A DNA stretch of 63,956 nt, filler included, from Collodictyon triciliatum (lineage: Eukaryota): NCBI GenBank assembly GCA_043381765.1. It is 26 parts of 26 records of this genome, joined end to end, with 100 filler letters (N's around TTAATTAATTAA, not from the genome) between each part and the next. Parts side by side here need not be neighbours in the genome. Positions count along the whole stretch, not along the records: positions 55,106 to 57,503 come from JBHJMP010008969.1; 25 more parts are not named here. One strand, 5' to 3'. Numbering within the stretch: position 1 is the stretch's first letter; each line of letters begins with the position of its first letter. The notes under the pieces were generated by a model. The model saw only the letters and a list, made by a program, of their open reading frames with translations. It made no database searches and was not told where the DNA came from. Below, one piece after another: positions 55,106 through 57,503 of the stretch. Made by a program: the position numbers and the translations under genes.

Positions 55106-57503
55106 CCATCCATTCTCATAGCACTCAGCCATCATCTGAGCCTGGAACTTGGTGAACTTACCCTGCTCACAATACGCAGCAAAGTCCGCATCAAAGGAAG
55201 CAGCACCGATAGAAAGTAGGAGGGATTTGTTGAATCGACTCAATCCCGTGACATTTCTGATTTGGATGTTTCCACCTTGCAGCTTTCTTGGGCCGATAAT
55301 CTGAACTGTCTTTGCATCTTGGATTCTGTTGGTGTCAATCATGTTCATCGCGTCACTTGTTCTGTTGAATACTGCGATGACTTCGTCTGGCTTTTCTTCG
55401 TTGACAAGGTATTTTCCTTGGGTGTAGGTCACTTCTGACTTTTGCAGACTGTGTGTTTGGTTTCCTGTGGCTACATCCCAAATACGTATTGTTTTATCAG
55501 CACTTCCCGAAGCCAGCCAATTTTCACCATTCGGTCCTAGAATACTGCAAACACTATAAACATAATCTGTATGACCTACTAATGTTTTCATTTGGTTTCC
55601 TGTAACTATATCCCAAATACGTATTGTATTATCACCACTTCCAGAAGCCAACCAGTTTTCGCCATTCGGTCCTTGAATACTGCAAACGCTAGTGACATTG
55701 CTTGTATGTCCTTCTAATTCTTTGATTTGGTTTCCTGAGGCTACATCCCAAATAATTATTGTTGTATCACTACTTCCAGAAGCCAGCCAATTTTCACCAT
55801 TCGGTCCTTGAATACTGCAAACACTCATGACAGCATTTGTATGACCTTCTAATTCTTTGATTTGGTTTCCTGTAACTATATCCCAAATACGTATTGTGTT
55901 ATCACCACTTCCAGAAGCCAACCAAATTTCTCCATTCGGTCCTTGAATACTGCAAATACTCCAGACCCTATCTGTATGACCTAATGTTTTGATTTGGTTT
56001 CCTGTGGCTACATCCCAAATACGTATTGTTTTATCCCGACTTCGAGAAGCCAGCCACTTTTCACCATTCGGTCCTTGAATGCTGCAAACACTAGTGACAG
56101 CATTTGTATGACCTCTTAATGTTTTGACTTGGTTTCCTGTGGCTACATTCCAAATACGTATTGTATTATCTTCACTTCCAGAAGCCAGCCACTTTTCACC
56201 ATTCGGTCCTTGAATACTACAAACACTATAGACACCTTCTGTATGACCTCTTAATGTTTTGACTTGGTTTCCTGTGGCTACATTCCAAATACGTATTGTT
56301 TCATCACCACTTCCAGAAGCCAGCCACTTTTCACCATTCGGTCCTTGAATACTACAAACACTATAGACAGAACTTGTATGGCCTTCCAATTTATCATTCA
56401 GAATTCCGAATTTTACATTACTCATATGCGCATTATCAAAAATGCAATCACCAAGCATCGAATTCGTGAAATCAACATCATCCAAGTTGGCACCAGTGAG
56501 ATTTGCACCATCAAGGATTGAGTTACTGAGATTTGCATGCTGAATTTTGATGTTTGATAAATCCATTCCACCAAACGAAACATTCATGAAATTCAAAAGT
56601 ATGATTGCATCACATGCAGCATTTGATTTGCTCTCATCAGTCTTTGACATGTAGACAATTCTGAATAATGATGCAATGATTTGCTCGCGATTCCATTCCT
56701 CATCCAGCTTTGCATCATCAAGAGTTTCACTGATGAATTCCTTGACTCTTGTAAACTCGACAGGCTCTTTATTGATTCCAATTTCTTTTGAATGGACGGA
56801 CAAGTATTCGCACGAGTTTAATGTTCTGGAGTGAATCCATCCGACTTTATCAGCGAATCGGTCTCTCATCTCAGTCCAGAATGCCACTGCTTCGTTATGC
56901 TGCTTCAGTTCCTTGTAAATCTTGTCGATTTCCTCACAGCTGTTCCATATGCCAAGATAGTGCATGGAATAAAGCTTGTTGAATAAATGAATCAGCGTTT
57001 TGTAAAGCAGAATAACAGCTTCATGCTCCTTCTTGTCTTTCATGAGGCGGATAATGTTGTCAATCTGATGGGTGTCTTTCAGTGACATGATTGTGCTTAT
57101 CTCCTTTCTGATAGCAGCTGCCTTCTGGAAGCAATCAACACATTGAGCAGAACTAGATGTATGTGCATTAGTTATTATTCAAGTATTTTTTCATTGGTTT
57201 TAATAAAATATTTAATTACTTTTAATATAATAGAAAAATCAACCTTTGAAGCTCAAAATTTGTTCTGCCAACATTCTCCAGGGCAGTTACATAGTCAGCA
57301 TGTCTTTCGCCCAATGTTCTCACGCGAATATCCAGCGTCTTTATATACGCCCCCAGAGCACCCTTAAAGCTAGGATAATAAGAGTAAATAAATTATTCTT
57401 TTCAATTAAATATGTAATAATAATTAATAAAGAGATACTCCTTCAAATCATGGCTGATGTCTCCAATCATTTCATAGCAGGCCACAACATTCGGATGATT
57501 TTC
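55106..57503 (-). CDS. TPR, pentapeptide-repeat and WD40 x7 protein; probable continuation of the gene type on contig 1; partial
   Basis: TPR exons 57439-57503 and 57244-57369, then one long exon 55106-57152 with DLSNI/NLSNS/NLTGA pentapeptides and seven GHT...W[DN] repeats. Confidence 0.9.
55457..56389 (-). repeat. Tandem array of seven near-identical 135-nt WD40 repeats (one of 132 nt)
   Basis: Recurring ccattcggtcct.gaat.ct.caaa and gaagcca.cca blocks at about 135-nt period. Confidence 0.95.

Follow-up and report, generated by a model that had tools for sequence, protein, structure and literature searches.

Does the WD40 array on a short contig of the protist Collodictyon triciliatum encode a rapidly diversifying, ligand-binding propeller for non-self recognition, as a sequence-only reading of this DNA had proposed by comparison with fungal allorecognition NLRs? 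Fast-evolving NLR sensors of filamentous fungi and multicellular bacteria characteristically carry, in the cited sections of the literature, repeat arrays that are internally conserved and hypervariable on the top face, and such arrays have been tied to a multicellular way of life (PMC4986451; PMC7159879). The contig under study (JBHJMP010008969.1; 2398 bp) occupies positions 55106-57503 of the window, i.e., the whole 63,956-nt stretch of DNA that was analyzed, which is built from successive contigs of ~2.4 kb each in a fragmented assembly. Its gene lies on the minus strand and is truncated at both contig edges.

Seven WD40 units emerged from repeat finding, Pfam, translation, AF2, and Foldseek (55442..56383, minus strand). 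Phased by GHT, units 1–7 start at 56383, 56248, 56113, 55981, 55846, 55711, and 55576 (ORF residues 236, 281, 326, 370, 415, 460, and 505), and all are carried by a single exon; the expected 45-aa length holds for six of the seven, with unit 3 at 44 aa. Tandem Repeats Finder places the array at 55456-56390 (period 135, 6.9 copies, 84% matches, score 1287), Pfam WD40 (PF00400) matches across seven stretches (E 9.2e-69), and a 23-mer from the loop, allowing up to three mismatches, has seven matches in the window versus none expected from 100 shuffles. The units share one framework and differ chiefly at codons 4, 5, 7, 26, and 28. The variable residues given in the sequence-only reading recur exactly in the translated units 1–7: SS/EG/NA/DR/NA/SN/DY after GHT, Y/Y/T/W/M/T/Y at the next variable position, and G/E/R/G/S/G/A and E/N/K/N/T/N/K around S-x-D-x-T. 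Additional variation, beyond that list, occurs at codon 19 (K/I/N) and at outer-strand codons 41, 43, and 45. Unit 3 also has R replacing a conserved G at position 24 along with its missing codon, and in unit 5 the conserved R at position 31 is replaced by I; these changes could be signs of decay. The repeats had further been called nearly identical at the DNA level and homogenised, and here the claims were too strong: the units are alike, but pairwise DNA identity is 0.79–0.93, the longest exact repeat inside the array is 62 nt, and protein identity averages 0.78 (0.72–0.91). High internal conservation in fungal NLR repeats is defined, in the section of the source used here, as >85% identity across at least 100 aa (PMC4986451), and the array falls short of this, since only units 1 and 2 exceed 85%, jointly over 90 aa.

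The array is predicted to fold as one seven-bladed WD40 propeller, on which Pfam, AF2, and Foldseek agree. The AF2 single-sequence model has 28 strands, with pLDDT mostly >90 across model residues ~81-380, and within each unit the strands span positions 6-13, 19-25, 29-34, and 40-45. Foldseek's top matches are seven-bladed WD40 propellers (5yzv, 7bie, WDR5; TM to target 0.85–0.90), the best solved-fold match being a Thermomonospora WD40 domain. Because of the strand positions in this model, codons 4, 5, and 7 (d-a loop and start of strand a) and codons 26 and 28 (b-c turn) would cluster at one end of the antiparallel sheet, hence on a single propeller face; mapping of the variable sites, which had been suggested along with the original claim, thus places these five codons on one face of the predicted structure, in a region with pLDDT mostly >90. 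The CSIQGPNGExW loop, singled out earlier as unusual, does hold three residues inserted between strands a and b that are peculiar to this family, but it is conserved and on the opposite face from the variable sites. We rejected GPNGE as a hypervariable ligand loop: it is near-invariant (only codon 13 of unit 7 and codon 19 vary), is conserved in Diphylleia, and in the AF2 model sits at the opposite sheet end from sites 4, 5, 7, 26, and 28.

Is this variation faster than expected under neutrality? The dN/dS comparison that the sequence-only reading had suggested was run over the seven units, i.e., a sample of seven units of 45 codons with the five codons chosen partly post hoc, and Nei-Gojobori estimates for the 21 unit pairs gave dN 1.10 versus dS 0.49 at codons 4, 5, 7, 26, and 28, and dN 0.096 versus dS 0.206 at the remaining 40 codons, ratios that gene conversion wiping out synonymous differences would inflate. 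We also ran 1000 neutral simulations (omega = 1), calibrated to the observed synonymous differences on a UPGMA-approximated tree. Summed Nd at the five codons was 7.03 against 1.93 ± 0.73 simulated (maximum 4.69), and when every replicate was represented by its own five most variable codons it was 7.57 against 4.79 ± 0.52 (maximum 6.58). Neither value was reached in any of the 1000 simulations, and this held when the simulated rate was raised by 40%. The five codons have changed amino acid faster than both the neutral expectation and the synonymous sites. In the Podospora HNWD genes, as far as the cited pages describe them, four selected top-face codons flank a conserved V in the d-a loop and a conserved D in the b-c turn (PMC1805685); in our own mapping, codons 5, 7, 26, and 28 appear to be the positional equivalents of these four. 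Positive selection of the HNWD type, at the codon pairs flanking V and D, is therefore seen here too, in a small sample (seven units).

The units have also exchanged segments. Among informative-site pairs, 84 of 190 are incompatible with a single tree (PHI-type permutation P = 0.007), and blocks of shared changes conflict with one another: four changes in codons 21-36 are common to units 4 and 6, and codon-43 changes are common to units 4 and 5. The array units are thus recombinant mosaics. Concerted evolution, with units exchanged within the gene and between family members, may account for these blocks and for the nested unit described below, though in a pool of nine units and one partial paralogue recent duplication might do so as well. 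Searches for full-length relatives gave three transcripts, all of Diphylleia rotans (P0166, P0167, and P0168), and mean unit identity within each of these proteins is 0.41–0.48 versus 0.78 in the array. In a tree, the seven window units and two units of a further family member, P0001, group apart from 28 Diphylleia units (support 94/92), with one P0001 unit nested among those of the window. Each of the nine complete units known (seven in the array, two in P0001) has a different residue set at the five codons.

To what protein does this propeller belong? From the contig's 5′ end, along the minus strand, partial exon A (57439..57503) codes for the last part of a TPR unit, ENHPNVVACYEMIGDISHDLK, placed by the spliced frame and by tblastn to Diphylleia P0167 residues 1310-1373. 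Intron 1 (57370..57438; 69 nt, GT..AG, seen as CT..AC on the plus strand) separates it from exon B (57244..57369; 126 nt), with one TPR_12/TPR_10-type unit (Pfam TPR_12 E 1.9e-4, TPR_10 E 1.9e-3), where the TPR_12 match scores 22 bits versus a cut-off of 30.1, a shortfall that comes from the short piece. Intron 2 follows (57153..57243; 91 nt, GT..AG). In sequencing runs X2 and X3, contigs connect 57369 directly with 57439 and 57152 with 57244, removing both introns exactly, and loose ends at the exon borders in RNA-Seq run X6 read as a paralogue's spliced exon. We rejected bacterial origin or contamination, given GT..AG introns that are removed in RNA-type contigs and nearest relatives that are eukaryotic transcripts. 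Once intron 2 is spliced out, the open frame is 746 aa.

Past the TPR exons lies a family-specific helical linker domain (56564..57152, minus strand), recognized by phmmer matches to the three long Diphylleia proteins; it is probably a TPR-like solenoid, and an Atlas feature search pointed to TPR clusters at 0.86, which is no more than a lead. A pentapeptide-repeat segment (56393..56563, minus strand; ~55 aa) is next, a beta-helix by its Pfam family (PF00805 E 9.2e-17; 60.7 bits versus a cut-off of 20.2), in which AF2 places short regular strands at low pLDDT (parts <50). The propeller comes after it, followed by a C-terminal tail (55106..55441, minus strand) that can be aligned to its counterparts in P0167 and P0168 (42 and 33% identity, respectively; 26 invariant columns) and runs into a Sel1-like repeat, for which the match in the P0167 tail (PF08238, E 3.1e-5) is under the Pfam cut-off. 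The contig end truncates this tail ~24 residues short of the relatives' C-terminus, and its pLDDT is <50 in the AF2 model. Pfam searches of the linker and the tail returned no significant family for either, and an Atlas search with the tail gave no match. The domain order visible on the contig is thus TPR, helical linker, pentapeptide repeats, one seven-bladed WD40 propeller, and a tail with a Sel1-like repeat; superstructure-forming repeats of the NLR/STAND kind (TPR, pentapeptide, and WD40) are all present, and their union with a Sel1-like tail in a single sensor arm is unusual.

The relatives extend this order toward the N-terminus. A phmmer search with the linker against 1.84 billion representatives gave 12 matches, and linker residues 8-197 match the three long Diphylleia proteins at E 6e-40 to 9e-28 (30–41% identity); the 45-aa unit and the tail of the array's gene are both found in all three. 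P0167 runs CH, DUF4062, NACHT, TPR, linker, pentapeptide, WD40, and tail. Its residues 1-1140 match Pfam CH (5e-11), DUF4062 (8e-11), NACHT (1.6e-5; 25.3 bits, slightly below the cut-off of 26.7), nSTAND1 (2.6e-5), and NPHP3_N (1e-4), with DUF4062 (residues 379-470) adjoining the N-terminal side of NACHT (653-817); no HET domain was found in these residues, which hold CH and DUF4062 instead. From P0167 we infer that the missing 5′ part of the Collodictyon gene would encode NACHT and also DUF4062, which is a TIR-like NADase domain. Because a Diphylleia relative carries DUF4062 and NACHT, we read the array, on balance and from homology, as probably the propeller with which an NLR-like (STAND) NTPase senses its ligand, in a gene family that would so far be seen only in Diphylleia-type protists.

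Wider searches bear on the second part of that reading. Residues 1-235, compared with 5.8 billion proteins, gave 45 matches among 1304 candidates: P0001 alone covers the linker, and the other 44 carry pentapeptide families and align with 16–48% of the query. With the WD region, 8000 near-length candidates were scored, of which 2397 reached E ≤ 1e-30; the top 120 of these 2397 are generic WD40 proteins (29–53% identity), largely cyanobacterial; among these 120, a GH-to-GH spacing of 45 is the commonest in only two, and the loop motif occurs twice in none. None of 1128 candidates in the shorter class passed E ≤ 1e-38, a threshold perhaps too strict for short fragments. Within the candidates scored from the 5.8 billion proteins, no close family members were found besides P0001. 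The loop 17-mer also occurs, with one match each, at 72 metagenome loci, which we rejected as chance matches, as tblastn and blastn turned up no related sequence at any of them.

Close relatives abound in other sequencing runs. Four such runs have 35, 386, 420, and 122 contigs, respectively, that match the 2.4-kb contig with an identity of ≥85%, filling all identity bins. Hundreds of close, non-identical contigs point to many paralogues or alleles, although the run depths sum many paralogues and are not usable as copy number; judging from these short contigs, there may be a repertoire of paralogues with differing specificity. A second contig of the window (1..2409, plus strand) comes from a close paralogue or allele in the same family and covers its TPR exons together with the helical region that follows NACHT. 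It matches P0167 residues 897-1330 in seven tblastn pieces (41–65% identity), extends back only to the post-NACHT region (residue 897), and in its last 67 nt agrees with the first 67 nt of the contig under study at 64 of 67 positions (95.5%).

Is the contig itself intact? The units could be real and the contig a short-read chimera or collapse of the units of several paralogues, in which case the number seven and the order would be artefactual. The window is a series of ~2.4-kb contigs, and the contig under study begins exactly at the end of the 95.5%-alike paralogue contig; the exact repeats of up to 62 nt within the array speak for the same view, as do X2 and X3 joints there, which leap over 270, 427, or 484 nt or return 111 or 339 nt. 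No contig of the four other runs spans the whole array, so that unit number and order are known from one assembly, and the largest share of the contig's words in any sequencing run is 0.14. However, no stop interrupts the frame, the propeller closes with exactly seven units (pLDDT mostly >90), P0168 likewise has seven, and contigs of other runs cross both array borders (56186-56531, 55249-55532, and 55291-55513). We therefore consider a chimera quite unlikely, and the per-site pattern would be unaffected by one, because the units would still be true members of the family pool.

How far does the array resemble the fungal genes with which it was compared? In the parts of the published descriptions drawn on here, the HNWD/NWD genes of Podospora anserina (HET-E, HET-D, HET-R), which encode a HET or different N-terminal domain followed by NACHT, likewise have C-terminal WD40 units that are alike within and between members (PMC1805685, PMC4986451), with variation at two codon pairs flanking V and D and dN > dS there (PMC1805685). 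Going by the same partial accounts, unit segments are exchanged and the family is multi-copy in both cases, and HNWD unit identity is about 85% and up to 100%, in contrast to a mean of 78% in the array. The HNWD unit is 42 aa long, unlike the 45-aa unit of the array with its conserved 3-residue a-b loop insertion. The present family differs further in having TPR, linker, and pentapeptide repeats between the NOD module and the propeller, a Sel1-like tail, DUF4062 and CH rather than HET as effector, and genes with introns; its host is a CRuMs-type protist and not a fungus, so that RIP, a fungal process, is not expected. From the analogy with fungal allorecognition NLRs we thus keep the selected-site pattern, the mosaic units, and, by homology, an NLR-like family, though not the fungal setting. 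A strict allorecognition gene, which like Podospora HET-E/D/R would distinguish between conspecific cells when they fuse or mate, would share the site pattern and unit exchange of the HNWD genes, but we regard it as very improbable: the family yielded no HET domain, and in P0167 DUF4062 stands in the place of the effector; for this single-celled predator related to Diphylleia we found somatic fusion nowhere reported, and no partner locus is known, with the data fitting pathogen sensing equally well.

The family also looks related to animal DUF4062-NACHT proteins. According to the excerpt available of a recent preprint, DUF4062 is a TIR-like NADase that adjoins NACHT in NWD1, NWD2, TEP1, and NPHP3 (bioRxiv 10.64898/2026.05.01.722283). 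As in these proteins, so far as that excerpt covers them, the Diphylleia relative has DUF4062 directly before NACHT and then a helical domain, followed by TPR as in NPHP3, and it has WD40 as do NWD1 and TEP1. Unlike them, it combines TPR and WD40 in one protein, with pentapeptide repeats between and CH domains at the N-terminus, and the array's units are young, alike, and hypervariable, traits that we did not find reported for the animal proteins in the portions of the literature consulted. Another explanation is a housekeeping STAND scaffold of NWD1/NPHP3/TEP1 type (e.g., flagellar or vault-associated), the propeller of which was recently rebuilt by tandem duplication of one unit and the blades of which fit one fixed partner, without repertoire or immune role. 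The Diphylleia relatives match NPHP3_N, and TPR_NPHP3 reaches E 2.6e-25 in P0168; animal DUF4062-NACHT proteins include, by the same excerpt, non-immune members (bioRxiv 10.64898/2026.05.01.722283); blades of any WD40 protein differ in their top-face residues; and the Diphylleia units are old and diverged, so the family overall is not obviously fast-evolving. Yet a fixed partner does not predict change above neutral at the five codons (0 of 1000 simulations), and the distinct residue sets of all nine complete units, the mosaic array, and the many paralogues or alleles to which contigs elsewhere point also weigh against such a scaffold, which we judge unlikely. Bacterial (including cyanobacterial) STAND NTPases resemble the present gene in their modular logic and in using pentapeptide repeats as a superstructure-forming module, as the cited extracts have it (PMC7159879; bioRxiv 10.1101/2020.01.06.895854), and are unlike it in that this gene is eukaryotic with spliced introns, its 45-aa unit being rare among the generic matches (2/120).

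With the array read as the sensor of an NLR-like NTPase, activation would take the course known for Apaf-1-type STAND proteins: a ligand would dock on the variable top face of the propeller and free the NACHT module, which would oligomerize and thereby turn on the effector at the N-terminus. If many paralogues trade units and selection favors new residues on the top face, a repertoire of specificities could result. An immune role is suggested by analogy, and in a single-celled predator viruses or intracellular microbes would be likelier targets than conspecific cells. Going further, we raise as a tentative possibility that CRuMs predatory flagellates of the Diphylleia group run a diversifying NLR repertoire of many paralogues, with 45-aa WD40 units that are shuffled and under selection for novel top-face residues and that act through NACHT on a TIR-like NADase, which would kill or arrest the infected cell.

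A full-text literature search found nothing on NLR or STAND genes in the Diphylleia group. The design is known from fungal and bacterial receptors and, as far as our searches show, what is new is its occurrence in a deep-branching protist lineage, CRuMs being placed near the base of the animal-fungus-amoeba branch. The same design in a unicellular, deep-branching eukaryote would broaden the known range of receptor repertoires, and the relation to animal DUF4062-NACHT proteins may offer an outgroup for the origin of NWD1/TEP1/NPHP3-type proteins. If the proposed repertoire is real, repeat-shuffling innate immune receptors would not be bound to multicellular or hyphal life, and could be examined in protists whose lineage brackets the point at which animal NWD/TEP1-type proteins arose.

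Seven tandem WD40 units make up a well-defined array at 55442–56383 (−). A minus-strand frame that runs open from 57088 as far as the end of the contig holds seven units that start with GHT (six of 45 residues and one of 44), and Pfam assigns them to WD40 (PF00400, E = 9.2e-69). Tandem Repeats Finder delimits the array at 55456–56390 (period 135, 6.9 copies, 84% matches, score 1287), and a 23-mer from its loop occurs seven times at up to three mismatches, against zero expected. A sequence-only reading had listed the variable residues exactly as they appear in the translated units; it had also called the units nearly identical at the DNA level, which overstates the case, as they are very similar yet share 0.79–0.93 DNA identity (mean protein identity 0.78), with a longest exact repeat of 62 nt. 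Variation falls at codons 4, 5, 7, 26 and 28 (counted from GHT) and also at 19, 41, 43 and 45. Two units are odd. Unit 3 (55981–56113, −) is one codon short ahead of the following GHT, and R replaces the conserved G in its ASGS motif; in unit 5 (55846–55980, −) the conserved R of TIRIW is replaced by I. Such changes may be tolerated, or they may mark early decay of this copy.

We modeled the part from the pentapeptide repeats to the tail with AlphaFold2 in single-sequence mode, which gave a propeller of 28 strands at pLDDT mostly >90; the tail was poorly predicted, as were parts of the pentapeptide segment. The top Foldseek matches are seven-bladed WD40 propellers (Thermomonospora 5yzv, designer 7bie, WDR5; TM to target 0.85–0.90). 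In each unit of the model, strands a, b, c and d span residues 6–13, 19–25, 29–34 and 40–45. Since a blade is an antiparallel sheet, sites 4, 5 and 7 (d–a loop and start of strand a) and sites 26 and 28 (b–c turn) share one end of the sheet, and the a–b loop (GPNGE) and c–d loop lie at the opposite end. The accessible part of PMC1805685, in agreement with general knowledge of WD40 proteins, gives the d–a and b–c side as the top interaction face. Mapping onto a predicted propeller, a check proposed with the sequence-only reading, thus brings the five sites together, and strand topology would put the variable sites on the top face.

The same codons carry the signal of selection. Specifically, Nei–Gojobori counts over 21 unit pairs give dN/dS = 0.71 for all codons, with dN 1.10 and dS 0.49 at codons 4, 5, 7, 26 and 28, and dN 0.096 and dS 0.206 at the other 40. 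Because the five codons were partly picked by eye, we ran 1000 replicates of a neutral simulation in which each of the 45 codons had omega = 1, along a tree of the units scaled to the observed synonymous differences. The summed non-synonymous difference at the five codons was 7.03 observed versus 1.93 ± 0.73 simulated (maximum 4.69); with each replicate scored at its own five most variable codons, regardless of position, it was 7.57 observed versus 4.79 ± 0.52 (maximum 6.58). The observed value was reached in none of the 1000 replicates for either statistic, also with the rate raised by 40%, in a test that covers seven units on an approximate tree. The excess of dN over dS suspected from the sequence therefore holds at these five codons beyond neutral expectation, within the seven units of one array. 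Gene conversion might erase synonymous differences in such a test, though this erasure is itself part of the model known from HNWD, the Podospora anserina NLR family (HET-E/D/R) with diversifying WD40 repeats. In the accessible part of PMC1805685, the selected HNWD codons 7, 9, 25 and 27 flank consensus residues 8 and 26; here a conserved V lies between codons 5 and 7 and a conserved D between codons 26 and 28, a correspondence drawn from the description and not from an alignment. The nine complete units known (seven in the array and two in P0001, a short related protein fragment) all differ among themselves at the five sites.

Within the array the mean unit identity of 0.78 compares with 0.41–0.48 within each of three related Diphylleia rotans proteins, and array units are as like those of P0001 (0.76) as they are like each other. 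In a weakly resolved maximum-likelihood tree (37 units, 43 columns), the 28 Diphylleia units are separated from the nine array and P0001 units, which form one group (support 94/92); one P0001 unit nests among the array units, and the first units of the Diphylleia proteins P0167 and P0168 pair together (94/69). A single tree cannot accommodate 84 of 190 pairs of parsimony-informative sites, and 5000 permutations show that incompatibility is reduced between neighboring sites (P = 0.007). Four changes at codons 21–36 are common to units 4 and 6, and changes at codon 43 to units 4 and 5. These patterns fit a history in which units exchanged segments once their lineage had parted from that of Diphylleia, and recent re-amplification of units followed by recombination is a possible alternative. 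The array had been described as homogenized. Its units are far more alike than those of Diphylleia; at a mean unit identity of 0.78 it falls short of high internal conservation as defined in the accessible part of PMC4986451 (>85% identity over ≥100 aa).

The gene has two short exons upstream of a long one, with GT..AG introns of 69 nt (57370–57438, −) and 91 nt (57153–57243, −) between the exons, and contigs from X2 and X3, two small public runs guessed to be RNA, skip exactly these intervals. With both introns removed, 746 codons are open, with neither start nor stop. In the visible product, the first exons supply TPR_12/TPR_10-type repeats (E = 1.9e-4 for the 41-residue exon), followed by a helical linker of ~195 residues without a Pfam family, ~55 residues of pentapeptide repeats (E = 9.2e-17), the WD40 units, and a 112-residue C-terminal tail, again without a Pfam family.

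A phmmer search with the linker against 1.84 billion representative proteins (E ≤ 1e-3) returned 12 matches, three of which are long proteins that align along the entire linker: P0166 (2520 aa, E = 6e-40), P0167 (2619 aa, E = 6e-31, 41% identity) and P0168 (1219 aa, E = 9e-28), all Trinity transcripts of Diphylleia rotans (EukProt). Over the linker, identity is 88% for P0001, a Logan-derived fragment of 392 aa that also bears two whole WD40 units of the array's kind and a third of another. Residues 1–1140 of P0167 contain a CH domain (5e-11), DUF4062 (8e-11), NACHT (E = 1.6e-5, 25.3 bits, slightly below the 26.7 cut-off), nSTAND1 and NPHP3_N, beyond which come TPR_12, the linker, pentapeptide repeats and ~20 WD40 units. 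The tail is 42% identical to that of P0167 and 33% to that of P0168 (26 invariant columns); a Sel1-like repeat (E = 3.1e-5, under the cut-off) closes the P0167 tail, and our contig stops ~24 residues short of that end. Diphylleia units likewise have 45 residues and the same a–b loop (e.g., SICSVNGPQGEVWLASGG). Among the best 120 generic WD40 matches of the array, the commonest GH-to-GH spacing is 42 (304 versus nine of 45), 45 is the commonest spacing in two, and none has the loop motif twice in one protein. The CSIQGPNGExW loop, flagged as unusual, is thus a signature conserved in this family on the bottom side, and is not a variable ligand loop.

The WD40 gene is known here solely as a fragment on a short contig. 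The 63,956-base window does not represent a single chromosomal stretch: its 50 runs of 44 N flank 25 TTAATTAATTAA linkers (N44-TTAATTAATTAA-N44, e.g., 55006–55105 and 57504–57603) and leave 26 pieces of ~2.4 kb, ours being 55106–57503 (2398 bp); adjacent pieces are therefore not genomic neighbors, which matters for anything that spans a linker. Simple repeats occupy the contig ends beside it, a T-rich 13-mer array (54453–55005, ~43 copies) and (AGAAA)n (57604–57702, ~20 copies), and such long repeats may be break points of the assembly. The first contig of the window (1–2409, +) holds at least seven exon pieces that match P0167 residues 897–1330 at 41–65% identity (post-NACHT helical part and TPRs), and it ends in 67 nt that share 95.5% identity with the opening 67 nt of our contig. 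This contig thus carries the upstream portion of a close paralogue or allele, the assembly having broken where the copies converge.

No single public run contained more than 0.14 of our contig's sampled words. Placed on the 2.4-kb contig at ≥85% likeness, contigs from four runs (35 from X1, a DNA metagenome; 386 from X2; 420 from X3; 122 from X6, an RNA-Seq metatranscriptome) occupy all identity bins, those of X2 numbering 74, 128, 122 and 62 at 99+, 95–99, 90–95 and under 90%. The non-repeat linker likewise lies under several distinct variants (three X1 contigs over 56513–56755, 14–29 differences). Run contigs bridge both array borders (56186–56531, 55249–55532, 55291–55513), none of those placed from the four runs spans the whole array, and joints within it omit 270, 427 or 484 nt or step back 111 or 339 nt. 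Loose ends at 57139 in X2, X3 and X6 join the end of exon B to a slightly different long-exon start and, on the consensus reading, appear to be spliced paralogue transcripts. At that start (57139–57152, −) the first 13 nt differ in paralogue transcript contigs of three runs; the paralogue version resembles Diphylleia (…ELQRLDQV…) and our copy reads …ELQSSAQC…, so a small divergent patch lies in our copy, right at the splice acceptor. Most simply read, these placements point to a sizeable, expressed family of close copies, which would also explain the fragmented assembly here.

TPRs, pentapeptide repeats and WD40 units make up a sensor arm, in which the closed seven-bladed propeller bears the hypervariable top face; from the relatives, a DUF4062–NACHT module is expected upstream. 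In the working that we propose, by analogy with STAND proteins such as Apaf-1, ligand bound by the repeat arm would release the NTPase, which would oligomerize and activate the N-terminal domain. The target might be a virus, an intracellular bacterium, prey or a conspecific cell. The accessible part of a preprint (bioRxiv 10.64898/2026.05.01.722283) reports that DUF4062 is an NADase of TIR-like type with activity in TEP1 and in a bacterial anti-phage system; in that case, the receptor would act by NAD+ hydrolysis. A CH (calponin-homology) domain stands ahead of DUF4062–NACHT at the start of P0167 (residues 1–300) and might link the receptor to actin or the cytoskeleton; we saw no description of this combination. 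Full-text literature searches yielded no description of a Diphylleia NACHT or, judged by title or abstract, of NLR genes in CRuMs, Collodictyon or Diphylleia; pentapeptide, NACHT, WD40 and TPR came up together in three papers, each concerned with prokaryotic systems. In domain content, animal NWD1/NWD2/TEP1/NPHP3 come closest to this gene family. The parallel drawn with fungal allorecognition NLRs survives in the evolutionary design of the array, which is like that of the Podospora HNWD repeats, and does not extend to membership of that family, from which the gene differs in effector, unit length, sensor-arm architecture and host, which is not a fungus. The array is a real feature: a diversifying receptor array of a known kind, in an unexpected lineage.
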